Shown here: in pieces, positions 1 to 15,181 of the stretch
Position numbering within the stretch: the first letter of the stretch is position 1
Layout: each line of letters opens with the position of its first letter
Source of the DNA: a virus
Taxonomy: Duplodnaviria > Caudoviricetes
IMG/VR virus record: IMGVR_UViG_3300005282_000008
Coordinates: 1 to 64,000 of that record
Length of the DNA: 64,000 nucleotides
Strand: one strand, 5' to 3'
The notes under the pieces: model-generated
What the model saw: the letters and a program-made list of their open reading frames with translations, nothing else
Told to the model about the DNA's origin: nothing
Databases searched by the model: none
Made by a program: the position numbers and the translations under genes

Positions 1-139
1 AAGTAATTTTTGTTTATACATCAATTATACGCTTATAATCTATTATAAACTACCTAACGAATCTAAACATTCGAAATAAAGATTACCTATTAGCACTAAG
101 CTAGATTGTCTAAAGACAACTTACTAATCTAATATAAAA

Positions 140-184
140 CAGATATATAAGTTTTAACACATTCTCAGACTATCTGCATTGTCT
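140..184 (-). ncRNA. small H-type pseudoknot motif, copy with long loop 3
   Basis: Minus strand AGAC-AAUG-CAGAUA-GUCU-(21 nt containing UUAAAAC)-UAUCUG; S1 AGAC/GUCU, S2 CAGAUA/UAUCUG; same layout as four other copies. Confidence 0.5.
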
Positions 185-193
185 TACTGGTGT

Positions 194-360
194 ACTTGAT
201 TTTATAGCCCGCACGATTATTTATTCATTAACTCTCCATGATGAGCACCACACGTATTTTAAGTAACCATCTACTTTAATGTAGACATGAATTACTCCAT
301 GGAATTACGTCTGAATGTGAATAAATTTACGCCCCACAAGTTTGTTATTTTCTAATGGTT
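194..360 (-). ncRNA. hatchet ribozyme-like element with ~90-nt insertion in P4
   Basis: UAACAAA-CUUG-UGGGGCG...CGUGCGGGC-UAUAAAAU-CAAGU follows the hatchet core; P2 ACUUG/CAAGU and P3 GCG/CGU co-vary with the 2460 copy; P4 AUUUAUUCA/UGAAUAAAU; P1 is weak. Confidence 0.7.
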
Positions 361-429
361 GTTATAAATCAGTGGCATATCCTACTTTCACAAGTAAGAT
401 ATGTCTAATAGTAGTATTAACCTGGATAT

Positions 430-834
430 TTACTTCTTAGGCGTCGCAATGCTCGCGACTGCCTTTTCAATAGAATCATCCCTAATGGCCTGTACTCCTT
501 TCTGTGCATAAGTTGCTAATACTATACCGTCATAATATACTTTATTAGAGTTATATTCACTAACGATTGCAACTTTGCTGGCATCCTCCCCGGTTTTCAT
601 GAGAATTGCCATAAATGCCATATCTGGTATACTATAATAAGTATCCAAACATTGTCGTTCCTGTAACTCATTAGCACGTTCTTGTAAACGCGACACTCTT
701 GCTACAGAATCCTGCTTAATAATCGTATCAGTCTTTTCAACTGGTACTTCTTTCTTGTCCCACCAATAGTGATCACAAGAACTCAACGAAATTATGGTCA
801 AAAGACCACAAATCAAAACAAGTAACTTTTTCAT
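430..834 (-). CDS. putative lipoprotein
   Basis: MKK + hydrophobic stretch + LSSC lipobox. Confidence 0.7.
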   Translation of the reverse strand: MKKLLVLICGLLTIISLSSCDHYWWDKKEVPVEKTDTIIKQDSVARVSRLQERANELQERQCLDTYYSIPDMAFMAILMKTGEDASKVAIVSEYNSNKVYYDGIVLATYAQKGVQAIRDDSIEKAVASIATPKK

Positions 835-850
835 TTTTGATAAATGTTAA

Positions 851-1366
851 TTAATAAATAGATATACTTATATCTGAAAGATTACATTGTAATTCACGTC
901 GCATCACGTCTTGCCATTTAATTCGAAGTTTTTGTACATCATCTAAAGACGAATCTTCCTTAAACTTATTTTTTGGAAATTCATATTTAAATGAATAATA
1001 AGACGATGTTTCGTTTATTAATTGCATAGAATCTACTATATCCTTTGCTTCTTTTAAACCTAATCCAGAAACATATTTAAATGCTTTTACTATTTGTAGT
1101 TTTGCATGACAAATATCTCCTGAAAGTTTAAAAGTGAATCCTTTTACGTTGCTTAGAACAAATGTTCTAAGTTTAGGGATCTCTACTGATACGTCTTCTT
1201 TTTTTGTATCTTGAATTATTTCTGTTAGAAAATCTAGAGCAATAAGTGTAACTACAAACTTTTGTACAGAACCAATAGCGCCATCACTTACTGCTACTTT
1301 ATCAACGAGATAATGTACATCTTCAATTTTAACAACTTTCCCAACTAATTCTGATGGATTTTTCAT
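851..1366 (-). CDS. protein with ribosomal protein bL12 (L7/L12) C-terminal domain
   Basis: AKLQIVKAFKYVSGLGLKEAKDIVDS matches the bL12 CTD signature KI.VIK..R..TGLGLKEAKDLVE. Confidence 0.8.
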   Translation of the reverse strand: MKNPSELVGKVVKIEDVHYLVDKVAVSDGAIGSVQKFVVTLIALDFLTEIIQDTKKEDVSVEIPKLRTFVLSNVKGFTFKLSGDICHAKLQIVKAFKYVSGLGLKEAKDIVDSMQLINETSSYYSFKYEFPKNKFKEDSSLDDVQKLRIKWQDVMRRELQCNLSDISISIY

Positions 1367-1378
1367 TTTGATATGAAT

Positions 1379-1591
1379 TTAAATTAATAACGTATAAACA
1401 AAAAAGTTTATAATGATAGATAAGCCTAAACCCAAACCTACAGTAATAGCATATACTATCATTTTACATTTACCAAATGCTTTATTAGCAATATAATAAA
1501 CTAATAGATAGCATAATACACTAATTACTGCAAGTAATAAAAGCATTCCACTACTTGGTGCAGGAGTAGACGCGAATGTAACTGTGTCCAT
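1379..1591 (-). CDS. small membrane protein
   Basis: Two hydrophobic segments; tightly packed with neighbours. Confidence 0.6.
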   Translation of the reverse strand: MDTVTFASTPAPSSGMLLLLAVISVLCYLLVYYIANKAFGKCKMIVYAITVGLGLGLSIIINFFVYTLLI

Positions 1592-1600
1592 TTTTTCTGA

Positions 1601-1876
1601 TTAATCTTTTTGACATGTTCCTATAATTATTGGTAAAACGTTTTCAAATATTAACCAATTTTGTATTTTGTTAACATTTGTTAGATTCTTTATCTCCACT
1701 TTAGTCTTTATAGATACTGTAATATGCTGCTTCTTTAAAGCTTGCAATATATTACCAATATCAAAAGTATTATTACTACCTATCACAATTTTATTATGAT
1801 CTATACTAATAATTGGAAATTCACATAAACCAAAGGTTTTGTTTCCAATTTTTATATAGGCATTACAAACTGACAT
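1601..1876 (-). CDS. hypothetical protein
   Basis: ORF packed in the minus-strand operon. Confidence 0.6.
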   Translation of the reverse strand: MSVCNAYIKIGNKTFGLCEFPIISIDHNKIVIGSNNTFDIGNILQALKKQHITVSIKTKVEIKNLTNVNKIQNWLIFENVLPIIIGTCQKD

Positions 1877-1878
1877 AG

Positions 1879-2088
1879 TTATTCACCGATAAGATTGTAA
1901 TAAACACTATCTATAGTTGTTTGTAAGGCATCTATAGCATTTTCAACATGATCAAGTTCTTTGATCAATCCAATTGATGGATGTGTTTCTCTAAGCTTGT
2001 CAATACATTCACTTTGTTTAGTAACCATATTATCAATTTCAATTAAACCCTTAATAAGGGTAAGTACTTCATCTAAATCTTTTTTCAT
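1879..2088 (-). CDS. hypothetical helical protein
   Basis: ATG ORF with AT-rich leader, abuts the next gene. Confidence 0.6.
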   Translation of the reverse strand: MKKDLDEVLTLIKGLIEIDNMVTKQSECIDKLRETHPSIGLIKELDHVENAIDALQTTIDSVYYNLIGE

Positions 2089-2236
2089 ATATTTTATTGA
2101 TTAAAATTTCAATTTAAGTTTTATTTCAAATATTCTCAACTGGCAGTTATAGTTGATAGATTTGCGGTTAAAACTTCAAGTGCAGTGTATTAAACATGAC
2201 TTTGTAAAAACCATTTCATCTGGCAGGACGAAACAA

Positions 2237-2310
2237 GTGCGCATACCTGAATCGAACAGGTGTACTATTATTCGCCAAAACAATAGGTTCTTCCACTAAA
2301 CTAATGCGCT
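2237..2310 (-). tRNA. tRNA-like element (possibly degenerate tRNA-Gln UUG)
   Basis: Acceptor GCGCAU/AUGCGC, D arm GUUU-AGUGGAA-GAAC, T arm ACCUG-UUCGAUU-CAGGU; anticodon arm longer than canonical; no CCA. Confidence 0.55.
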
Positions 2311-2315
2311 TTCCA

Positions 2316-2340
2316 GATAGATTTAAGACATATCAGGTCT
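2316..2340 (-). ncRNA. small H-type pseudoknot motif
   Basis: AGAC-CU-GAUA-U-GUCU-UAAAUC-UAUC. Confidence 0.65.
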
Positions 2341-2459
2341 ATGCTAACCATAATAGAGACAATAGGAGTCGGAACATCCTATAATTTAGCCAAGGTTTGT
2401 TATGGCTTCACGAGTTTTAATTGGCGTTTTGTATACCTTGTATACACACAATCTCCAAT

Positions 2460-2540
2460 ACATGATTTTAATGTCTGCACTAATACTTACTTATAGTAAG
2501 ATATAAGCCCCACATGCTTGTTACTGATTCTCACAGTTGT
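2460..2540 (-). ncRNA. hatchet self-cleaving ribozyme
   Basis: ACUGUGAGAAUCAGUAACAAGCAUGUGGGGCUUAUAUCUUAC-UAUAA-GUAAGUAUUAGUGCAGACAUUAAAAUCAUGU; very close to the hatchet sequence as I recall it, with P1-P4 all formable. Confidence 0.92.
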
Positions 2541-2543
2541 ACA

Positions 2544-2571
2544 GGATAGTTTATAGACTTATCCCAGGTCT
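2544..2571 (-). ncRNA. small H-type pseudoknot motif
   Basis: AGAC-CUG-GGAUA-A-GUCU-AUAAAC-UAUCC. Confidence 0.7.
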
Positions 2572-2648
2572 CAAAGTAATACCAAAACCACATTTAGTTA
2601 TATTTAACACTACTTTGTAGTTTTGGTTACTTTGTTCTTAGTTTTTGT

Positions 2649-2677
2649 TGGCGATTTTATAGACTGCCATTTTGTCT
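2649..2677 (-). ncRNA. small H-type pseudoknot motif
   Basis: AGAC-AAAA-UGGC-A-GUCU-AUAAAAUC-GCCA. Confidence 0.65.
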
Positions 2678-2772
2678 CAAATAACTCTTGCTGAGCTACA
2701 TCCCGTTCATTGGGTTGCCTAGCTTGTTACTAGGGGCCTTCTGCAAATCTAGCAGCTGCTCTCATTATTTAA
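2678..2772 (-). ncRNA. twister-like ribozyme variant with extra helices
   Basis: 5' UAAUG, hairpin CCUAG-UAACAAG-CUAGG, 3' GAGUUA (T1-like UAAC/GUUA); extra stems GAGC/GCUC, CUGC/GCAG, CCC/GGG. Confidence 0.5.
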
Positions 2773-3031
2773 TTTTTGTATACTCTATGATAACCCATAG
2801 ATAAGCTTACTGCTCTAGTATACTTTAGAGAAGACCAACTATTCTAATTAAAAATGAATAGGTTCTATTTATAACAAGATTGTGTCTTTTCATCTTTGTT
2901 ATATCCATTTCTCTTTAAGGTTACACTGATCTAATGGAAAGATCACCCTTACTACGTAGATTATAATAGTACTATTTATGTATTACAATTCGTTTTGTGT
3001 ATAAACTTTTCATACTTAAATAATCTATTAT

Positions 3032-3091
3032 TATTGTTGACTCTGCATTCAACAGGCTTGTCACTGTGTATTCGCGCTGCATTAAACAATA
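3032..3091 (-). ncRNA. twister self-cleaving ribozyme (P1 type)
   Basis: UAUUGUU-UAA-UGC-AGC...ACAG-UGACAAGC-CUGU...GCA-GAGUC-AACAAUA; P1, P2, P4, T1 (UGAC/GUCA) and T2 (GC/GC) all formable. Confidence 0.9.
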
Positions 3092-3132
3092 TTATAGTAG
3101 ACGCAAGGCTTGGTTACCCTTGTTTGACCGTA

Positions 3133-3417
3133 TTAATCCGGTTGACGATTATAAGTAAGCCATTTATCATAGATATTTTTCCAGAATTCAAAACCTTCAT
3201 TTCTAATTTCTGTTTCTTTCCATATAAATGAAACATTAAGAATATGAATGTCAGCATCTAAGATTATCTTTAATAAGACATCTGCGCCAATTTTTTTGGC
3301 ATGATCATAAACATTTTCCTTATATCTATCCCAAACTTTTTCTTGTTTCATAAATTCAATGAAATCATTTGGTAATTGTCTAAGAAGTTGTCTTTCTTTT
3401 AGTTCTGTAGGACTCAT
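3133..3417 (-). CDS. hypothetical protein, paralog of 4160..4444
   Basis: Shared F.W..T.....G..FW..I.DKW C-terminal motif. Confidence 0.7.
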   Translation of the reverse strand: MSPTELKERQLLRQLPNDFIEFMKQEKVWDRYKENVYDHAKKIGADVLLKIILDADIHILNVSFIWKETEIRNEGFEFWKNIYDKWLTYNRQPD

Positions 3418-3422
3418 TTTAT

Positions 3423-3852
3423 TTATGAATTGAATTTATTTTTATAGTCAATTATTAACTGATTATCTCTTAGAAAATCAGAACCAAGTATACCAATTAT
3501 TTTTATTCCTAATGCTAAGTTTAAATTCTGCATAGATATTGTTTTAAACTATATATGTAATACTATCTACTTTTACATTTATTGTAGAAGTTTGATATTC
3601 TAAGTTATAATTAATACTTGCAAAAGCTTTTGTATTATTTGGAGTATAATGCCCAATACTATTTAGATATTCAATTGATAACCAAGATGAATTACTTCCG
3701 GTATCTATTAAAAAATTACCTCGTTCTAGATGCACAATTGGTAAAGAAGATTTCTCTATAAATGTCATATTATTTAAAGTTGTTAATTCTAAACTATGAC
3801 TATTACAAGAAGTTACTAGAGCAACTAGTAATAATAAAATAAATTGTTTCAT
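3423..3852 (-). CDS. lipoprotein retropepsin-like aspartyl protease (split by 1-nt insertion near 3551)
   Basis: Lipobox VTSC and FLIDTGS catalytic motif; the GILGSDFL motif continues in another frame to a stop at 3423; span 430 nt = 143 codons + 1. Confidence 0.75.
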
Positions 3853-3877
3853 TTTGATGATGAATTAATTGTTACTT

Positions 3878-3903
3878 AGCAGTTTTATGTCATGCTTAGG
3901 ACA
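3878..3903 (-). ncRNA. small H-type pseudoknot motif
   Basis: UGUC-CUA-AGCA-U-GACA-UAAAAC-UGCU; S1 co-varies with the AGAC/GUCU copies. Confidence 0.7.
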
Positions 3904-3933
3904 AGTCCACTTTATATAAAATGGGCTAGAAAC

Positions 3934-4167
3934 TTATTTTTGAACAATTATTTTATCAATCTTTGTTCTAGTATTTTTATCCCAATTATCGATCATTTTA
4001 GTTAAATCAATAATAGCAAGATCTATATTAGTTTTTTCAACTGTATCATGCACTCTATCATAAGCGTTAGTATGTGAATTCCTAATCGTTTTAAGATTAG
4101 CTATAATACCTAAAATACGCATCTTATTATAGTTACGCATTCTTGCCATGTCTTGTTTTCTACTCAT
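3934..4167 (-). CDS. hypothetical protein
   Basis: ATG ORF overlapping the upstream gene end. Confidence 0.65.
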   Translation of the reverse strand: MSRKQDMARMRNYNKMRILGIIANLKTIRNSHTNAYDRVHDTVEKTNIDLAIIDLTKMIDNWDKNTRTKIDKIIVQK

Positions 4168-4444
4168 GATTAAATTCTTTTAGCCATTTGTCATGAACAT
4201 CATTCCAAAAATCATAACGTCTTCCAGATGTCTCTGGTGTATTTGACCAACTAAATGCATATACAATTGCCCATTCTGTGGTTAGATTATAAATTCTGCA
4301 TTCTGCATCAGCTGAACTTACTTCTCTAAGACGTTTTGTCATATTGTTGATAAACGCACATAATGCTTTTTCTTTCTTTAAAAACTTAATTAGTTTTTCT
4401 GGCATAAGGTAACGCAACTGTTTTTTACTTATCTTTGTTTCCAT
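4160..4444 (-). CDS. hypothetical protein, paralog of 3133..3417
   Basis: FSWSNTPE...YDFWNDVHDKW motif. Confidence 0.7.
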   Translation of the reverse strand: METKISKKQLRYLMPEKLIKFLKKEKALCAFINNMTKRLREVSSADAECRIYNLTTEWAIVYAFSWSNTPETSGRRYDFWNDVHDKWLKEFNHE

Positions 4445-4445
4445 A

Positions 4446-4667
4446 CTATTTGTGTTTTAAGTATAAAATAGTCATGATAATACCATAACCTGATACAATT
4501 AGAAAACACAATGCTTCTGGTAGATTCCAAGCAAAACGAGGTTGTCTAGTTGTAATACCAAAATGATTTAAAGTTGAGAAGATACAACCAAATGCGATTC
4601 CTATATTTAATACAGTAGCAATACACATAAAGAATGCTAATAGCCAAATTTTAATTTCTTTTTTCAT
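4446..4667 (-). CDS. small membrane protein
   Basis: Two hydrophobic segments. Confidence 0.6.
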   Translation of the reverse strand: MKKEIKIWLLAFFMCIATVLNIGIAFGCIFSTLNHFGITTRQPRFAWNLPEALCFLIVSGYGIIMTILYLKHK

Positions 4668-4919
4668 TTGATATGATTATTAAAGAGTTTATAGTTAATC
4701 GGCTTAAAGTACCGATTATGAATTCTGTAAATACTAAATTATAGTATCCCGAACAACTTATTATACACTTACATAGTATTGCAACTATGTTTAATCTTTA
4801 TAGATATATTTTTACTCACAGTGGAGTCATACCGCCATTTATAGGCAAATATGAATACTCTATATTGCAAGTGTCTGCAACGTTTATTTAGTTTATCTTA
4901 AAGATGTGGATAAAAATAG

Positions 4920-5150
4920 TTATTCCATATAACTTTGTTCAGTGATGACATGTTCTGTACCAACGTAAGTAGCACCTACTATTTGTTCAAGATCTTTATC
5001 TAAGAACTTTTCAGTTGTATATGACCTAATTATCTTCATGGCATTAAAAGCGTTCTTTGCCGCTACTACTATTATACCATTACCATAATCTTCATGACGC
5101 TTACAGATATATAGTAACATTTGTTCTTTTAAAGTTTCTTCATTGTTCAT
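4920..5150 (-). CDS. hypothetical protein
   Basis: ATG ORF with AT-rich leader. Confidence 0.65.
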   Translation of the reverse strand: MNNEETLKEQMLLYICKRHEDYGNGIIVVAAKNAFNAMKIIRSYTTEKFLDKDLEQIVGATYVGTEHVITEQSYME

Positions 5151-5408
5151 AAGATTAATTATTAAGTTAAGCTATATATTAAAGCAAAGAATAGAAATAA
5201 AGTAGATATAAACGAAGGGCTTATTTACGGGTTGGGTGTAGACGTACCTGCATATATGCACACGAATCCTTAAAATTCATAAACAGTTTCCTTCGTTTAA
5301 TACAAGATTGCCTAACAATGAAAAAAAGTTCGGTGTTGAAATATATTTCAGTATAAGGAGGATCTCGGTATTAGTGATACAGTGTGTTAAGGGACTAAAA
5401 AAAGGTAA

Positions 5409-5495
5409 TTAATTACCCATTTTGTGCCACACCCACTTGGTGATTTCAATGATAGCACATGCAATTGGCATGTACACTAGTACTACTACTAACAT
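5409..5495 (-). CDS. possible 28-aa membrane peptide
   Basis: Read by eye: MLVVVLVYMPIACAIIEITKWVWHKMGN; below the ORF-track cut-off. Confidence 0.3.
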   Translation of the reverse strand: MLVVVLVYMPIACAIIEITKWVWHKMGN

Positions 5496-5522
5496 ATTAT
5501 ATAGATTTTTAGATTACTTTAG

Positions 5523-5551
5523 AAAAACCCCAACCATTGCTGGTCAGGGTT
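5523..5551 (-). terminator. rho-independent terminator
   Basis: AACCCUGACCA-GCAA-UGGUUGGGGUU followed by U-tract, just after the 5560 stop. Confidence 0.7.
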
Positions 5552-5559
5552 CATTACAA

Positions 5560-6153
5560 CTAATGACGGCGTTGTTGTTGACCGTTCTGTGGTGCAGGTG
5601 GAGCTACATTGTTCAATGGGTTTGCAGCATGTTCAGCCTCAGCTTTCGCTGCGATCTCTTCTGCAGTCATCTCTTCAGACTCATCCCATTCAAACATAGA
5701 ACCATTGTTAACACCTCTAGCACGTTGGCGTTCAGCCTCACGTTGAGTGTCAAGATCCAACAAAGGACTGACAATCTGAATACTCGTGAACTTAATGGGT
5801 TTACCATCCTTATCACAAACATCAGTTCCGGTACGATCACCAGATACCCATACACGTCCAAATGGAGCTACTTCAACACGATCAACGATCAAATCAACCA
5901 TGTCTCCTACCTTAACTTCAGCCTTGATACTGTCAACCATTTCCTGGCTTCCACCAGTCATGATGTTGAATGTGTAAGATAGGCTTGCTGCGCTAGCTGC
6001 AAACTTATTAGCACCCTTTAATGATGCATCAACGGTCTTAATTGTTACGAAGTCTTGCTTCGCTGGTGTTGCACCGTTCATTACTTGTACACCATTAGCA
6101 TAAAGGTCACATTGACCCCATTTCATTTCTACAATCTTACATTGCTTTTTCAT
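5560..6153 (-). CDS. hypothetical protein, possibly ssDNA-binding (beta-rich core, acidic/low-complexity tail)
   Basis: GC-richer ORF; ATG at 6153 preceded by AGGAGG; function is inference only. Confidence 0.6.
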   Translation of the reverse strand: MKKQCKIVEMKWGQCDLYANGVQVMNGATPAKQDFVTIKTVDASLKGANKFAASAASLSYTFNIMTGGSQEMVDSIKAEVKVGDMVDLIVDRVEVAPFGRVWVSGDRTGTDVCDKDGKPIKFTSIQIVSPLLDLDTQREAERQRARGVNNGSMFEWDESEEMTAEEIAAKAEAEHAANPLNNVAPPAPQNGQQQRRH

Positions 6154-6245
6154 ATCCAATCCTCCTATATTTTTACGTAGCTACACCGCGTAACTACTCT
6201 TATTTCATAGATAATCCCCGTATAGCCGATGGGACAGCTTAAATC

Positions 6246-6536
6246 TTAATCATCGAAACTACCACATACTAATGTAAGGTTCTCTGAATCTGCATATATA
6301 GGGAATGTTGCACCTACTGCAATTGCTCCGTTATATATAGCTTCAGTTATAACATCTTCATCTTCTTGGTCATAGACCTCAAATGTAGACGCGTATAAAC
6401 CCATACATAGCTCTAACTCACGATTAACCCACGTTAGCATAGCGTTAAGCGAATGTGTTCTACCTACTCTAGTGTAAGTTGCCTTTACGATTATACCATT
6501 TATTGGTAGAATTGTTTCATAAATTCGTAGTGCCAT
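6246..6536 (-). CDS. hypothetical protein, first gene of the leftward block
   Basis: ATG ORF next to the strand switch. Confidence 0.6.
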   Translation of the reverse strand: MALRIYETILPINGIIVKATYTRVGRTHSLNAMLTWVNRELELCMGLYASTFEVYDQEDEDVITEAIYNGAIAVGATFPIYADSENLTLVCGSFDD

Positions 6537-6872
6537 ATCTTTAAGTTATTGATTACAAAAGAATGGCACGTTTATGGTACGTGCCCAACCCTATTCTGAT
6601 CCGTTTATTTCATCTATCAGTGTGTATCAGCTAACCACTAACAGCGGAAGTCAGTTCCCATACTAGGGGTACTTCCTCCAATTACTAACCCGGGGGAGTG
6701 ATTTGTGTACAGGTTCACACACTTGTTAATCTGATAACTTTTTTTTATTTTAAAAAAATTATTTTATAGGTTCACACGTTTACTAAACCAATTGTTTATG
6801 TATCTTAACCGTTAATGAATGTTAAATATATGTTAATAGTCTATTAAATAATAATAATATTTTATGGATTAG

Positions 6873-6897
6873 CAACCTTAGGTTATTCTATACGTTA
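6873..6897 (+). promoter_or_regulatory. putative phage promoter CAAC-N16-CGTTA
   Basis: Same motif and spacing at 8233 and 8725, each upstream of a plus-strand gene. Confidence 0.6.
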
Positions 6898-6959
6898 AAG
6901 ACAGTATATAACAGTTTAATAATACTCTTACTCTAGAGTAAACATAATATTAGTATAAC

Positions 6960-7157
6960 ATGAATAGTGAACAAGTTAAGAAAGCCGTTGAATCAGGATA
7001 TGTACAGATAGGTAGTAAAATATATAATCTTACTCCAGCAATAGATAATAGATGTAATGATTGTCATTTTGTTAATAGTGGTTGCCCTACAAAAGCAATA
7101 GATGTATGTACAGTTGGACATGTTACTTTACATTTAGTTAAGAAACACAATGGGTGA
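6960..7157 (+). CDS. small Cys-rich protein, paralog of the next gene
   Basis: CxxC...CP...C-T-x-G motif. Confidence 0.7.
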   Translation: MNSEQVKKAVESGYVQIGSKIYNLTPAIDNRCNDCHFVNSGCPTKAIDVCTVGHVTLHLVKKHNG

Positions 7158-7350
7158 ACCAGAGGCAATTGAAGCAATTAGGAAAGGTTCTGTTACTATA
7201 GACGGTACTAAACTAAAGGTAGTTAAACAAGAACATGGTTGGTGCGATGGTTGTATCTACAATAAACAAGAGACAATGCCAATATGCCCAGATTTAGCTA
7301 GACATATATGTTGCACAGGTGGTTATATTTTAATAAAAGGTAGAAGATGA
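7150..7350 (+). CDS. small Cys-rich protein
   Basis: CDGC...CP...CCTGG motif; aligns by eye with 6960..7157. Confidence 0.7.
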   Translation: MGEPEAIEAIRKGSVTIDGTKLKVVKQEHGWCDGCIYNKQETMPICPDLARHICCTGGYILIKGRR

Positions 7351-7449
7351 CAGAATATGAAATTAGAGTAATCAAACTCCAACAACGTGGAGATTGTCCA
7401 CATTTGGCATATTTGATATACCAAGAAAATAATTCTATTTTTAGAAAAA

Positions 7450-7851
7450 ATGAAAATAACAGATCTTGATAAAATTAAAGAATTAACTAAACCATTTATT
7501 ATGCATTATAATGATAGTGAATGGGGTGAAGAAATTCTAATAATGCAAGAACATGGATTAGCATTTGCTCGTATATATTGGTATAATGATGACGACACTT
7601 CAGTATATTTAGATTGGTTAAGTGTATCAGAAGATTCCCGTAAACAAGGTATTGGTACAAAATTAATAACATTATTAGAAGAAATTGGAAGATTATTAGG
7701 TGCTTCATTTTCTTATTTATATGTAAGAAAGATGTCATGGATGTATGACTGGTATAAAAGAAATTCATATATTGATTATAAAGAAAATAAAGATAATACA
7801 AATATGATATGGATGGTAAAATCATTAATAAAAGATAAAGATGGAAAATAG
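7450..7851 (+). CDS. GNAT family acetyltransferase
   Basis: LSVSEDSRKQGIGTKLI motif A; WYKR near the C-terminus. Confidence 0.85.
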   Translation: MKITDLDKIKELTKPFIMHYNDSEWGEEILIMQEHGLAFARIYWYNDDDTSVYLDWLSVSEDSRKQGIGTKLITLLEEIGRLLGASFSYLYVRKMSWMYDWYKRNSYIDYKENKDNTNMIWMVKSLIKDKDGK

Positions 7852-8248
7852 TATAGCAAGAATAAAGGAATTGGATATTGAATATAAAGTTGCATCTGAT
7901 AAGATGAATAATATTAACAATGAGATGCGTAAACTTATAAATGATATAGATTTATCTGGTAAATGTTTCTTCGTAACTAAGACTAATAACTATGAAGTAT
8001 TAATTAAGTTATTAAATAGAATTGAACACAAACCTATAGAAGATTGTGAGGATATTGATTTACCTAATCTAGAATATACTGCGATTAAGATAAGTAAATA
8101 CACTAGTTCAAAGGGTATAATTGATTATAGTATATCTAATGATGTTGAATATATCTATCCAGATAAGATAATTAATGAGATAACAGAAGAAGAATTTGTT
8201 AGTTATTTTACTAATGTTAATAAAGAAATAAGCAACCTTCTCGATTAA
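7841..8248 (+). CDS. hypothetical protein
   Basis: ORF overlapping the GNAT stop. Confidence 0.65.
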   Translation: MENSIARIKELDIEYKVASDKMNNINNEMRKLINDIDLSGKCFFVTKTNNYEVLIKLLNRIEHKPIEDCEDIDLPNLEYTAIKISKYTSSKGIIDYSISNDVEYIYPDKIINEITEEEFVSYFTNVNKEISNLLD

Positions 8249-11855: not shown

Positions 11856-12237
11856 TATTATGAAGTATATTTTAACTAATAAAAATAGAAATACCTTATT
11901 AAAAATTAATGTTGAAACTTTAAATTTTGATGTGTGTGAACGAGCGCCTATAGAAATTGATTATAGTTGGTTTATTGAAGAAGATGGTTTATTAGAATAT
12001 GCTGGTAAAACTTATGAAGTAAATGCGGGGGATACTGTGATTATGGTGTATTCAATAACAAAAGAAACTCAAAATTTACCATATAAAGATCGTGTTAGAG
12101 AAATTTTGGTTATTGAAAGAGATTCTACATTTGGTAAATATATTAATAGGAGACATACTGAAATATTAGAAGAATCTAAAAAAGACTTTGAGTCAAAAAA
12201 ACTTGGTGAATGTTGTACAGAATCATGTTCTAATTAA
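11839..12237 (+). CDS. hypothetical protein
   Basis: ORF in operon. Confidence 0.65.
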   Translation: MKLKNNIMKYILTNKNRNTLLKINVETLNFDVCERAPIEIDYSWFIEEDGLLEYAGKTYEVNAGDTVIMVYSITKETQNLPYKDRVREILVIERDSTFGKYINRRHTEILEESKKDFESKKLGECCTESCSN

Positions 12238-12239
12238 TT

Positions 12240-12773
12240 ATGAAGTTCTTTGATATACAAGATGGTAAAGTGGTAATCCATCCAGATGCACTTGGATTAC
12301 CATTCTTTCATAAGTTATGGGATTCTGAAGATGATAAAGATCTAGTTAATAAGTGGATAACATTTGTTATTTTTAAAAACTATTATGATTCGCCATATGT
12401 AAAAGCATACTCAAGTTCTGAATTGGAACCTAAGGTAAAGTTGGATGTATTTGATGATAAAACTTATATAATACCAGATAAGGTTAGACTAGTTGAAACT
12501 GAATTTAATGAAACTTTACAAAATTCTTTACTACTTAGATTCTTAATGAGCTCTAGAAAAAAGATAGACTCTATTAGAGAATACTATGAGAATTCATTAG
12601 CAGATGAATTAGATGACGGTAAAGTACAAAAGATAATGATGTCTATGGCTAAAGTTGCTGATATGTTTACTAGTTTAAAGAATCTAGAGAAGGCAGTTAA
12701 GGTTGAAGAATCAGAATCAGAACGAGCAAGGGGTGGTGCTGAAGTTAGTTGGTTTGAACAAGTTAGGAAGTAA
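12240..12773 (+). CDS. hypothetical protein, candidate terminase small subunit
   Basis: Helical protein upstream of TerL; function inferred from position only. Confidence 0.5.
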   Translation: MKFFDIQDGKVVIHPDALGLPFFHKLWDSEDDKDLVNKWITFVIFKNYYDSPYVKAYSSSELEPKVKLDVFDDKTYIIPDKVRLVETEFNETLQNSLLLRFLMSSRKKIDSIREYYENSLADELDDGKVQKIMMSMAKVADMFTSLKNLEKAVKVEESESERARGGAEVSWFEQVRK

Positions 12774-12846
12774 AAAGTTGTACATTGAAGTACACAAATA
12801 AAAACAAAAAGAAATTAAAACGTTTTAAATTAAAAATTAAGATATT

Positions 12847-13098
12847 ATGACAAAGACTAAGAATAATTCTGTAGTAGATACTACATTGGAAAATACAGTT
12901 AATGTTAATGAAGTTGGTGCTAATAATAAGATTATATTAGACTTTACTCAAGATAAACCAACAGGATTAGTTATTGCAGAAGCAAAGAAAGCTAATGGTT
13001 TAACATTAAACAATAATGATTTAGATTGGTTAGAACAGAATAAAGTAGGGTTTTTTACAAAGGTAAAAACTTATATTAAGACTCTATTTAAAAAGTAA
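12847..13098 (+). CDS. hypothetical protein
   Basis: ORF directly upstream of TerL. Confidence 0.65.
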   Translation: MTKTKNNSVVDTTLENTVNVNEVGANNKIILDFTQDKPTGLVIAEAKKANGLTLNNNDLDWLEQNKVGFFTKVKTYIKTLFKK

Positions 13099-13104
13099 AC
13101 TAAT

Positions 13105-15181
13105 ATGGTTGATTTCACTAAAAAGATCAAAAATAGTGATAAATTTAGAGGCCCTGCTTTGGAGTATATTCGAAGCGGGGTTTACTGTTCATATCCTAGA
13201 GGAACTACCGAATATATCAAATTTTGGGAAGAAGAACAGGAAAGATGTATAAATGGGTATACTGCATCCGATGGTGATCGCATCACTGGATATTATTATT
13301 TCTATTTGAATTACTGTCCTATTCTACGAATTGTGAATAGACTTACTGTAGATAAAGATGGTAAACAACATAATAAACGAGGTAGTGAATTAACATTTCC
13401 AGACTTCTATGATTATGATTATTACTATTATAATTCTGTGCAATTAGCTGAAGATGAAGGTAAACACTTATGTGTAATTAAATCTCGTAGAAAGGGATAT
13501 TCATATAAAGGCGGTTCAATGGCCTGCCGTAATTATTATCTTATTCCTAATTCAAAGACATATGTTTATGCTTCAAATAAACAGTATCTTACTGAAGATG
13601 GTATACTTACCAAAGCTTGGGAATATATGGACTTTTATTGATAAGAACACAGCTTGGGGTAAGAAACGTACAGTGAGTACTACAATGCGTCGTAGAGCTG
13701 CTTATATCATTACTGATGAGTTTGGTAATAAAATAGAATGTGGTTATAAGTCAGAAATTATTGGAGTGTCACTAAAAGATAACCCTGATGCACTACGTGG
13801 TAAACGTGCTAAATTAATTCTATTTGAAGAGGGTGGTACATTCTCAGAATTAGGTGCAGCATGGCAAATCGCTAGACCATCTGTAGAACAAGATGGACTT
13901 ACCTTTGGATTAATGATTGTATGGGGTACAGGTGGTGATGAAGGTTCTGCTTTTGCTACATTAAAGGATATGTTTTATCATCCAGATGGATATAACTGTT
14001 TGGGTTTTAAGAATATATGGGATGATGATTATTCTGATAATAAATGTGGATTCTTTATACCACAATATACAAATCTAGATAATAGAGATGAATTTGGTAA
14101 TAGGATCTATATGGATAATGATGGTAATACTATTCATAAACCATCATTACAATTTATATTAGAAGAACGTCGTAAAGTAACTGAAACTGCTACAAGTACT
14201 ACTGCAATTGATAGATACGTTGCAGAACGTCCAGTAACGCCTAAGGAGGCAATGTTAGAGTTTAATGGTAATATCTTTCCTAAGAAAGAGATGCAAATGC
14301 AGTTATCTTACATTAGAACTAACAAAAAATTACATAATCAAAAACACATTGGTGATCTAGTTTGGGAACAAGGCATTCCAAAATGGATACCAAAGAAAAC
14401 AGGTGATATTACTCAATACCCATTACCAAAAGATGCAGATCCTACTGGTTCTATAGTTATATGGGAGCATCCTATGAAAGATCCACCAATAGGTTTATAT
14501 ATTGCTGGCTGTGACCCCTACGATCACGATCAGTCTGGTACTAATTCATTAGGTTCCACTTTTATATACAAACGTATTCAAAGTTTTGAAGAATATTATG
14601 AGATGCCTGTTGCAGAATATACAGGTAGACCAGAAACAGCTGAGGCGTACTACGAAAACGTTCGTAAGTTATTGGTGTATTATAATGCTAGGTTACTTTA
14701 TGAAAATGAACGTAAAGGTATATTCCCATACTTTACTTCTAAACATTGTGATTATTTATTAGCAGATCAACCTGATATTATTAAGGATATTGTTGGTAAA
14801 TCTGGAGTAAATAGACAGAAAGGTATCCACATGAGCAAACCCATTAAAGATTGGATGGAAGGTCTAATTAAAGAATGGTTATGTGAGGAATATGCGCCTG
14901 GTAAAAAGAACTTAACAAAGTTATTATCTGAACCGTTACTTGAAGAACTCATTAGTTATAATGACACTGGCAATTTCGATAGAGTAATCGCATTTGGACT
15001 TCTAATGGTCTACAGAGAACAATTACACAACCTTCATGTAAAAGATAAAAAGAAGGTACAAAAGAAATTAGATTTATTTGGGAGTCCTATTTTTAGTGAT
15101 ACTTGGTGGGGTAATACTAAAGATGATTCAATAGATAATGATAGAACAAACACAACAACTGAAGAAATATATACTTTTTAA
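13105..15181 (+). CDS. terL: terminase large subunit (split by an extra T at ~13635)
   Basis: KSRRKGYS Walker A, ILFEEGG Walker B, GTGG motif, IAGCDPY nuclease and NFDRV; removing one T from ACTTTTATTG gives WEYMDFIDKNTAWG. Confidence 0.95.

Follow-up and report, generated by a model that had tools for sequence, protein, structure and literature searches.

Content of the island

A gene-free kilobase with two hatchet ribozymes, a minimal twister ribozyme, a tRNA-Gln gene and folded RNAs lies in the genome of a crAss-like gut phage, within a block of small leftward genes ~12 kb upstream of the portal gene. The window analyzed here comprises 64,000 nucleotides (IMG/VR record IMGVR_UViG_3300005282_000008, positions 1 to 64,000) of a 95-kb genome. 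All elements of the island are on the minus strand, co-oriented with the leftward genes, and no minus-strand ORF in 2237–3095 is longer than 37 residues. An earlier note on this DNA had claimed this co-orientation and the absence of a credible long ORF, and had described self-cleaving ribozymes and folded RNAs strung along one strand without proteins; this description is borne out. In transcript order, the elements are:

3122–3104, minus strand: 3'-UTR hairpin CAAGG-GUAACCAAG-CCUUG, 10 nt past the stop codon of a 94-aa ORF
3088–3035, minus strand: minimal type-P1 twister without P3 (Rfam twister-P1, 37.9 bits; our model R1, 68.3 bits)
3034–2544, minus strand: non-coding RNA between the twister and hatchet 1 (491 nt, MFE −111.6 kcal/mol)
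3031–2963, minus strand: long AU-rich hairpin, equivalent to RAGATH-7 P1 (z = −3.54)
2967–2908, minus strand: RAGATH-7 core-like domain (model R2, 30.6 bits, E 1.9e-5)
2772–2677, minus strand: twister-like element X (passes the twister descriptor; no covariance-model match)
2634–2572, minus strand: 19-bp long stem with small apical structure (−23.3 kcal/mol, z = −5.17)
2543–2460, minus strand: hatchet 1, with short P4 (Rfam RF02678, 80.3 bits)
2459–2345, minus strand: spacer after hatchet 1 with three hairpins (83–84% identity in relatives)
2310–2237, minus strand: tRNA-Gln, anticodon UUG (Rfam tRNA, 36.5 bits; ARAGORN)
359–194, minus strand: hatchet 2, with long P4 insert and very short P1 (Rfam RF02678, 79.0 bits)
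193–141, minus strand: conserved tail after hatchet 2 (89–92.5% identity to L138, L141 and L142)

The Rfam cmscan check proposed in the earlier note placed both hatchets and the tRNA above their gathering scores, but the twister fell below its own and the twister-like element had no match. At E ≤ 10, no Rfam family matched in 2544–3034 or in 2311–2459. Searches of a phage collection with 2100–3200 (blastn) and 1–8000 (megablast) returned a 41-nt hatchet core or nothing, and ten neighboring small proteins gave only weak PHROGs matches, to families of unknown function. A coding reading of the island was ruled out by the lack of ORFs above 37 residues, and the small ORFs are not conserved in the related locus L147. 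A sigma-70 promoter scan stayed at background (36 found versus 35.8 expected).

The twister ribozyme

The twister core consists of P1/L1 (UAA), P2, P4/L4 and the pseudoknots PK1 and PK2, with P3 and P5 as auxiliary elements (PMC11662667). The twister claimed at 3091–3032 was recovered at 3088–3035 with every core element present: P1 (3088–3085/3038–3035), the L1 UAA (3084–3082), P2 (3081–3078/3047–3044), P4 (3067–3065/3054–3052), PK1 (GC 3077–3076 with GC 3057–3056) and PK2 (GAC 3062–3060 with GUC 3041–3039). The match to Rfam twister-P1 (RF03160; E 6e-6) falls short of the gathering score of 67.2 for want of the optional P3, and the twister copies of relatives score the same 37 bits. Model R1, built from related phages, found the window twister as its sole match in the genome. 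Cleavage is predicted at U3084/A3083, between the U and A of the L1 UAA.

Covariation in 11 homologues also upheld the twister claim. P2, PK1 and PK2 are paired in 100% and P4 in 91% of them, and compensatory changes affect 3/4 P2 pairs, 2/3 P4 pairs and all three PK2 pairs, the last occurring as GAC:GUC, GGC:GCC, UAC:GUA and GAU:AUC. Over the whole alignment 82.8% of cells are paired and 13 pairs carry double changes, a level reached by 0/500 shuffles. From these alignments we assign the window twister to a P3-less subfamily of crAss-like phages, which is present in 13 of 20 wide crAss-like loci, on the same strand as the hatchets.

The hatchet ribozymes and their probable role at mRNA 3' ends

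Both hatchets cover positions 1–133 of the Rfam model and exceed its gathering score of 51 bits, so that the claims of hatchets at 2540–2460 and within 360–140 hold. The conserved core of the Rfam alignments (CAA linker after P1, UGGGGC and GUGCAGAC...UUAAAAUCA) was found, with hatchet 1 matching throughout (ACAAG, UGUGGGGC, GUGCAGACAUUAAAAUCA) and hatchet 2 having GUGCGGGCUAUAAAAUCA and a 3-bp P1. The hatchet 1 core is 100% conserved in L138–L144. Its Mg2+-dependent cut is predicted near A2540/C2539, at the 5' end of P1, placed after Zheng 2019 (PMC6561176). The two outer P1 pairs of hatchet 1 are mismatched, and the predicted −1 position is an A where characterized constructs have C; hatchet cleavage has been reported with any of the four nucleotides at −1 (Zheng 2019, PMC6561176).

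Hatchet 2 begins 70 nt after ORF 834–430. The tail that follows it (141–193) had no significant fold, and its identity to L138, L141 and L142 (listed above) compares with 77–83% for the flanking genes. Of 28 hatchets, 20 follow the stop codon of a same-strand ORF at a distance of 30–73 nt, and no hatchet is inside an ORF, which fits 3'-end formation; that most hatchets of the clade stand close behind stop codons lends support to a general function in mRNA 3'-end formation. The annotations of reference crAss-like genomes omit these elements, and in NC_055894 a CDS annotated as 'hypothetical protein' extends into a hatchet.

Upstream of the twister, the 94-aa ORF (3417–3133, stop codon 3135–3133) is followed by the 3'-UTR hairpin at 3104–3122. 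Its stem reads CAGGG...CCCUG in relatives, a double compensatory change from CAAGG/CCUUG, and in relatives without a twister it adjoins the upstream side of the hatchet as a hairpin of P0 type (term from Li 2015).

The 491-nt RNA in the RAGATH-7 slot

The 491-nt RNA fills the slot held in relatives by RAGATH-7 plus RAGATH-7-assoc. The earlier note's description of a hairpin-rich spacer was accurate: none of 100 shuffles folded as well as the whole RNA (z = −4.33), and hairpin 3031–2963 has a z-score of −3.54. The only match that blastn and nhmmer returned for the RNA, among all collected loci and elsewhere in the genome, was L147, a locus from read set SRR28248376, relative to which the indels are not multiples of three.

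The 5' domain resembles the RAGATH-7 core. Hairpin 3031–2963 lies directly after the twister, at the position of the RAGATH-7 P1 hairpin, and is retained in L147 despite indels and sequence change. Model R2, built only from the RAGATH-7 cores of six relatives, matched 2967–2908 as its sole hit in the 64-kb window with filters off. The domain contains a palindrome CUACGUAG (also written CUACGUAG / CCACGUGG) at 2959–2952 and a hairpin at 2950–2917. The marks of the RAGATH-7 5' core, namely a long P1 hairpin, an AAUCCACGUGGUAG linker and a hairpin with a GUGCA internal loop directly past the twister, are all found here, and we regard the domain as homologous to that core. Full-length RAGATH-7 (RF03159, gathering score 111.8 bits) had no match in the genome at E ≤ 10, RAGATH-7-assoc had no meaningful match in the genome, and model R3, of the RAGATH-7 3' half, gave only noise. 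Regarding the pseudoknots claimed by the earlier note, loop UCCAUU (2938–2933) can pair with AAUGGA (2909–2904), and relatives have different but complementary sequences there; this support for the pairing is by eye only, as MAFFT put the 3' strands into different columns.

The remaining ~360 nt match nothing and form hairpins that include the twister-like element and the 19-bp stem. The long stem claimed at 2572–2634 proved to be there, with 0/200 shuffles folding as well. As a terminator the stem was ruled out, there being no U-run after it.

The twister-like element

Element X has the layout of a twister, with P1 (UUAAA/UUUGA), UAA at 2767–2765, P2 (UGAG/CUCA), hairpins P3, P4 and P5, a P4 loop GUAACAAGC at 2730–2722, and GA+GUU at 2687–2683 complementary to the loop AAC; internal loop L1 has 4 extra nt (GCAA). 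The descriptor, written after seeing X, requires UAA after P1, P2, GC for PK1, a P4 loop GUnnnAAGC, and GA plus the complement of nnn before P1'. Its only matches across the 95-kb genome were the twister and X, against 1 match in 30 shuffled genomes (0.03 each) and no false match in 1.9 Mb of related loci.

The 'twister-like' call at 2772–2678 is at most weakly supported: X passes this post hoc descriptor, but it matched neither Rfam twister-P1 nor R1 (filters off, E ≤ 10), and twister-sister (RF02681) had no candidate across the genome at E ≤ 10. The twister fold of X also has a competitor in a plain 9-bp helix (UUAAAUAAU/GUUAUUUGA). Pattern scans of IMG/VR and JGI metagenomes found no homologues of X; scans for X or the 491-nt filler gave only chance matches without hairpins (4 in IMG/VR, 1 in JGI metagenomes). 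It is a tentative and somewhat doubtful reading that X is an active, structurally new variant of the twister, which has both P3 and P5 arms and four inserted nucleotides in its catalytic internal loop and splits a 545-nt RNA in two, and that the ~360-nt modules are a new class of phage non-coding RNA swapping as a ribozyme-bounded cassette. If X does cleave, present twister models miss real variants, and this variant would be one currently invisible to covariance models.

The tRNA and the spacer after hatchet 1

The fold that the earlier note called tRNA-like is present, but an ordinary tRNA gene accounts for it: the Rfam score (RF00005, gathering score 29 bits) and the ARAGORN assignment of Gln UUG identify a real tRNA gene rather than a tRNA-like element. 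A1:A72 is mismatched, as is one position in the anticodon stem. The tRNA is part of a 125-nt cassette (2357–2233) with a conserved leader. The 'multi-stem element' claimed after the hatchet (here 2459–2311) is at most weakly supported: RNAalifold gives three hairpins in 2459–2345, with 4 pairs showing double changes and two of the hairpins invariant in relatives, but the folding energy of 2459–2311 is no better than that of shuffles (z = −0.39).

The island in related phages

Identity and orientation of the elements, their synteny and covariation, and the gain and loss of modules between strains are matters of observation. A hatchet occupies the same genomic position in 43 of 50 related phage records (25/27 among those ≥90% complete), ~12 kb upstream of the portal gene and on the opposite strand, as in the window. 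The twister is upstream of the hatchets on the same strand in 12 of 13 twister-bearing loci; the exception is one genome (L114/L125), where the twister follows the hatchets by ~530 nt. The hatchet position is syntenic, but by the earlier note's own test of conserved element order the closest relatives fall short, being without the twister module and the tRNA.

The relatives carry head-to-tail arrays of RAGATH-6, twister, RAGATH-7, RAGATH-7-assoc, hatchet, tRNA and RAGATH-9; the Rfam families represented are RAGATH-14, Hammerhead_3, RAGATH-6, twister, RAGATH-7, RAGATH-7-assoc, Hatchet and RAGATH-9. L100 is gap-free, with RAGATH-6 at 2734–2584, twister at 2583–2531, RAGATH-7 at 2530–2306 and RAGATH-7-assoc at 2303–2173, and then a hatchet at 1597–1501. 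Hatchet is largely confined to Crassvirales (2026 preprint). The island is consequently not the undescribed system that the earlier note suggested, as relatives carry the same kind of array, made of Rfam families (compare the 2026 preprint on hatchet). Such islands are already known in related phages and only some parts are new; those specific to the window are the 491-nt RNA in the RAGATH-7 slot and the ~360 nt of it that remain unmatched.

Proposed processing of the transcript and alternative readings

Because type-P1 twisters and hatchets place their cut at or near their own 5' edge, the natural reading would be that the leftward transcript is diced into defined pieces, as the earlier note proposed. 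Most likely the ribozymes and folded RNAs, on one strand and without proteins, cut one long transcript into pieces. The small-gene block would be transcribed leftward as a polycistronic RNA that the ribozymes cut co-transcriptionally, and self-cleavage would likely serve to set RNA 3' ends. With the cut at the ribozyme's own 5' edge, the upstream RNA would acquire an exact 3' end with a 2',3'-cyclic phosphate, and each ribozyme would stay on the downstream RNA as a folded 5'-hydroxyl cap. The first product would be an mRNA that has the 94-aa ORF and its 3' hairpin as its last parts and is released by the cut at U3084/A3083. A second, cut near 2540/2539, would be a ~545-nt non-coding RNA of twister, RAGATH-7-like domain and ~360 nt of unclassified modules, which an active X would divide at 2767/2766 into pieces of ~317 and ~227 nt. 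The third would comprise hatchet 1, the spacer and pre-tRNA-Gln, to be finished by host RNase P and 3' nucleases, and then a five-ORF mRNA (2088–430); a further cut at hatchet 2, at about 356/355, would give the fourth. We infer transcription, cleavage in vivo and a benefit in uncoupled stability or dosage of the pieces and in the release of folded small RNAs. Processing of polycistronic transcripts is the proposed role of such ribozymes (PMC6765202).

The gain and loss of modules bears on this reading. Neither tRNA-Gln nor the ~527 nt of the twister module (3084 to about 2558) is found in relatives at 82–87% identity, which makes the full array as first described strain-specific and those parts dispensable. 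L143, in which left and right flanks are joined, resembles an empty site; the left edge of the indel and the predicted twister cut are only 1 nt apart; with the same leader and trailer on either side, the tRNA slot holds Gln in the window, tRNA-Ile(AAU) in L138 and nothing in L141–L144; and in IMG/VR and JGI metagenomes the twister and filler module was found only in L147 and the near-identical L148. (The exact 69-aa neighbor protein led only to L148, a copy of the window genome at 99.97% identity, and for the 94-aa neighbor, pattern searches of IMG/VR found no relatives and no recorded protein matched exactly.) Such observations favor selfish or neutral cassettes, mobile or recombining, that excise themselves harmlessly from the transcript at no benefit to the phage. 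We nevertheless consider this unlikely. The 52 nt of 2965–2914 are 100% identical in L147 while the flanks differ, which argues for selection on the RNA, and the RAGATH-7 core is kept across phages whose portal proteins are only 62–67% identical. Cassette and excised RNA do not coincide exactly, as the right edge of the indel lies ~18–20 nt before the hatchet cut, and no signature of a reverse transcriptase, an integrase or repeats turned up.

That the excised RNAs are circularized by an RtcB-type ligase, or act as decoys or regulators in a new protein-free RNA system, is very unlikely. By established chemistry, twister and hatchet cleavage would leave ends that RtcB joins, and the host could supply the enzyme, to judge from a Bacteroides control genome that encodes RtcB; but the phage encodes neither RtcB nor an RNA ligase, and the ends of the 545-nt fragment show no complementarity by eye, leaving the circles and decoys of the earlier note without support. 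The same kind of array is moreover catalogued in relatives, so the category is not new. Hardly any probability attaches to dedicated tRNA maturation, in which hatchet 1 would process the tRNA-Gln precursor much as theta ribozymes of gut phages are proposed to trim tRNA 3' trailers, a phage precedent for ribozyme–tRNA pairing (PMC10879173). The tRNA is 149 nt downstream of hatchet 1, and L114 has a tRNA-Leu 66 nt before two hatchets in tandem. Hatchet 1, however, precedes the tRNA instead of following it, and the leader would in any case be removed by RNase P; L141–L144 have an identical hatchet and no tRNA; and hatchets mostly follow ORFs rather than tRNAs, with a tRNA within 1.5 kb in only 4 of 30 hatchet loci. 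Dicing of one transcript by its own ribozymes remains the reading that we prefer.

Comparison with known systems

Retrozymes and viroid-like circular RNAs likewise have a non-coding RNA between two self-cleavage sites, with 5'-OH and 2',3'-cyclic-phosphate ends. The window differs in its two ribozyme classes, the lack of a repeated unit and the DNA phage context, and it has no ligation-competent helix joining the ends; circles are unsupported. HDV-like theta ribozymes adjoin tRNAs in gut phages (Kienbeck et al. 2024, PMC10879173). They too are small phage ribozymes wholly downstream of the cut site that define the 3' end of the upstream RNA, and both they and the window ribozymes occur in gut phages of Bacteroidota. 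Theta ribozymes are of another class and stand directly 3' of suppressor tRNAs, whereas ribozymes of the window kind mostly follow ORFs or folded RNAs, and the ordinary tRNA-Gln(UUG) is downstream of a hatchet.

The early polycistronic mRNA of phage T7 is cut by RNase III at structured sites, leaving stabilizing 3' hairpins. There, as proposed here, a long phage transcript is cut between cistrons at structured sites and 3'-end hairpins stabilize the products; in the window, however, the RNA would cut itself. The 19-bp stem (2634–2572) could, we infer, be an RNase III site in addition.

For the roles of bacterial and phage self-cleaving ribozymes and of RAGATH RNAs, the locus offers a compact natural comparison, in which the phage and relatives at 82–87% identity differ by whole modules while flanking genes and hatchet are the same. 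Weinberg et al. (2015/2017) reportedly found RAGATH and related motifs near twister- and hammerhead-associated genes. Closest to the window are the RNA islands of crAss-like phages (Hatchet RF02678, twister-P1 RF03160, Hammerhead_3, RAGATH-6, -7, -7-assoc, -9 and -14). Unlike these, the window has neither RAGATH-6 nor RAGATH-14, and only the 5' core of RAGATH-7 is recognizable, its 3' half and RAGATH-7-assoc being replaced by ~360 nt; the version in the closest relatives is much shorter, with a hatchet only. The phage order, genomic position and strand logic are the same, as are the P3-less twister and the succession of twister, RAGATH-7-type RNA, hatchet, (tRNA) and RAGATH-9, the last of which the window genome has further along the same strand. 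The locus is thus probably one case of the ribozyme-punctuated non-coding RNA islands of crAss-like phages (Crassvirales).

Contents of the RNA island

The window spans the first 64 kb of a 95,193-bp IMG/VR virus record that was judged complete. The portal protein of this genome (845 aa) has 62–68% identity to its counterparts in crAss-like phages of the human gut (cr4_1, cr125_1 and others; Crassvirales). Small leftward genes lie in bases ~5200 to 1, and three Rfam matches above cut-off lie in the same stretch:

2543–2460, minus: Hatchet (hatchet 1), 80.3 bits
359–194, minus: Hatchet (hatchet 2), 79.0 bits
2310–2237, minus: tRNA-Gln, anticodon UUG, also called by ARAGORN

The observation in the earlier note is largely right (see below). 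What it described as a 'tRNA-like fold' proves to be an ordinary gene for a tRNA, given the ARAGORN call of Gln(UUG). In 2237–3095 the minus strand has no ORF above 37 aa. Between the two hatchets, a 171-aa ORF (851–1366, minus) has a weak match to Pfam Ribosomal_L12 (PF00542), taken from the precomputed annotation of an identical contig (L148). The 50 nt after hatchet 2 (193–141, minus) are 89–92.5% conserved, above the neighbouring genes, and contain AAUGCAGAUAGUC, which resembles the twister's 3' part (AAUGCAGAGUC).

The same genome has a second RNA cluster on the strand of the island, at genome positions 92218–93899 (12218–13899 of the stretch L004):

RAGATH-9, minus: 75.0 bits against a gathering score of 75.2
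RAGATH-20, minus: weak match
'Permuted tmRNA', minus: 55.9 bits, gathering score 47; ARAGORN tag GKTFVTDYVRLSA
tRNA-Ile(GAU), minus
tRNA, minus: called Tyr with anticodon AUA by ARAGORN

The tmRNA-like tag is identical in a relative (L141). An Rfam tRNA match of 35 bits and 100 nt at L004 1698–1797 (genome 81698–81797, minus) received no ARAGORN call and could represent a tRNA carrying an insert.

A twister ribozyme lacking P3

At 3088–3035, Rfam twister-P1 scores 37.9 bits (E 6e-6); absence of the P3 stem keeps this under the 67.2-bit gathering score. The same form, lacking P3 and likewise scoring ~37 bits, was found beside hatchets in related phages. P3 and P5 are auxiliary in twister, the core of which tolerates many imperfections (PMC11662667). 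In an alignment of 11 twister copies, 82.8% of cells are paired and 13 pairs changed on both sides, a result reached by none of 500 shuffles. P2, PK1 and PK2 are 100% paired across the 11 copies, with PK2 occurring as GAC:GUC, GGC:GCC, UAC:GUA and GAU:AUC. A model made from these copies has the element at 3088–3035 as its sole match in the present genome (68 bits). Applied to 20 wide related loci, it finds a twister in 13, every time on the hatchet strand. By this score, covariation and recurrence, the twister proposed in the earlier note is real.

Type-P1 twisters are cut in the 5' strand beside P1. The predicted cut, U3084/A3083, lies 49 nt past the stop codon of a 94-aa ORF, and between the two is a 3'-UTR hairpin (3122–3104) that covaries (CAAGG/CCUUG here vs CAGGG/CCCUG in relatives).

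A divergent RAGATH-7 core in the 491-nt RNA

The 491 nt between twister and hatchet 1 (3034–2544) are strongly structured (z = −4.33) but lack any Rfam match at E ≤ 10. In the 5' part, a long hairpin (3031–2963; z = −3.5) is followed by AAUCUACGUAGUAAGGG and then by another hairpin, whose internal loop is GUGUAA; in the RAGATH-7 consensus, AAUCCACGUGGUAG precedes a hairpin with GUGCA. A model made from the cores of six relatives only has its sole match in the 64-kb window at 2967–2908 (30.6 bits, E 1.9e-5, filters off). This portion is a divergent RAGATH-7. Its hairpin loop UCCAUU is complementary to AAUGGA seven bases downstream, and relatives have GGUU and AACC at the matching places, which by eye suggests a covarying pseudoknot. 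The core linker (2959–2952, minus) is an 8-nt palindrome, CUACGUAG in the window and in a closer strain (L147) vs CCACGUGG in six of six relatives; two changes therefore preserved the palindrome, which could be an RNA dimerisation site or a dimeric protein site on DNA.

The present island lacks both RAGATH-7-assoc and the 3' half of RAGATH-7. The remaining ~360 nt (2907–2544) hold several weak hairpins, an element X (2772–2677), a 19-bp stem (2634–2572; z = −5.2) and, ahead of the hatchet, a small hairpin of P0 type.

X, which the earlier note called twister-like, has features that favour a twister relationship: P1, UAA, P2, GC for PK1, and P3/P4/P5 hairpins, with GA+GUU complementary to AAC of the P4 loop GUAACAAGC. 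A descriptor of twister features, written after X had been seen, matches only X and the true twister in the 95-kb genome, once over 30 shuffled genomes, and only true twisters in 1.9 Mb of related loci. The motif GU[AG]ACAAGC is found at three sites genome-wide, all in the array: in twister L4 (3064), an X hairpin loop (2730) and the P1–P2 linker of hatchet 1 (2524). Similar loops are present in two other hairpins, GUAACCAAG (3117–3109) and AUAACAAACC (near 2400). X is recognised by none of the covariance models used, and searches found no homologue. Against the relationship, besides the after-the-fact descriptor, its catalytic loop has four extra bases, and a plain 9-bp helix is a competitor of the twister fold. 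On balance we lean towards X being twister-derived, and regard its activity as a ribozyme as possible but less likely than not.

Variation among close strains

Contigs reached via homologues of the 94-aa protein (L138, L141–L146; 82–87% nucleotide identity) align as far as the 3'-UTR hairpin and then skip to the hatchet, lacking ~527 nt (3084 to ~2558). The left edge of this indel is 1 nt from the predicted twister cut and the right edge ~18–20 nt before the predicted hatchet cut. L143 looks like an empty site, since sequences matching both flanks are joined there. The closer strain L147, whose 94-aa protein is 91% identical, carries the twister plus the module's first 120 nt; its changes affect linkers or compensate each other within stems, and a 52-nt core is identical. 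The hatchet is invariant among the compared relatives.

The tRNA is a second cassette: the same slot (window 2357–2233; L138 6521–6679) holds Gln(UUG) here, Ile(AAU) in L138 and none in L141–L144. Its ~30-nt leader (GACCUGAUAUGUC..CUAU.UG) and trailer (UUCGUCCUGCCAGAUG) are constant, so that tRNA bodies appear to have been swapped within a fixed frame.

Islands in related phages

Hatchet is present in 43 of 50 related records (25 of the 27 with a completeness of at least 90%), usually in 1–4 copies, often two spaced 2–3 kb. The position is exactly that seen in the present genome: ~12 kb upstream of the portal gene, on the strand opposite to it. Rfam searches of 20 related loci revealed head-to-tail arrays, such as that of locus L100:

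3097–2932: RAGATH-14
2906–2850: Hammerhead_3
2734–2584: RAGATH-6
2583–2531: twister
2530–2306: RAGATH-7
2303–2173: RAGATH-7-assoc
between RAGATH-7-assoc and hatchet: ORF
1597–1501: hatchet

Ribozymes in reference Crassvirales genomes look unannotated. The RefSeq crAss-like genome cr6_1 (NC_055894.1 32959–37999, locus 2029–2517) has no annotated ncRNA, and a 'hypothetical protein' CDS extends into the start of the hatchet match (2501–2541).

Proposed role and relation to known systems

Ribozymes adjoin the 3' ends of RAGATH RNAs gaplessly in relatives, and the best reading is therefore 3'-end definition of upstream units. Among 28 surveyed hatchets, 20 lie 30–73 nt past a same-strand ORF stop codon and none within an ORF. 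Each ribozyme would set the 3' end of the upstream unit, be it a folded small RNA or a hairpin-bearing mRNA, before capping the downstream unit with a structured 5'-OH end, breaking the leftward transcript into independently stable pieces; here we infer leftward transcription, cleavage in vivo and benefit. A processing array, as the earlier note had it, is a reasonable reading. The note's further suggestion of circularised or decoy RNAs finds no support: neither RtcB nor an RNA ligase is encoded by the phage, and no pairing was seen between fragment ends.

The proposed breaking of the transcript agrees with the role put forward for bacterial and phage ribozymes, the processing of polycistronic transcripts (PMC6765202). 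In a related locus (L114 1501–2326, minus), a weak RAGATH-7 precedes tRNA-Leu(UAA), and a tandem pair of hatchets follows 66 nt after the tRNA, a layout resembling 3'-trailer processing. Given the same-type arrays of Rfam families in relatives and a 2026 preprint, according to which hatchet is largely restricted to Crassvirales, the island is of a known kind and the 'undescribed system' of the earlier note is not tenable. New here are the retention of the RAGATH-7 core alone with ~360 nt of unclassified RNA, a possible unrecognised twister variant, and the presence or absence of modules among close strains.
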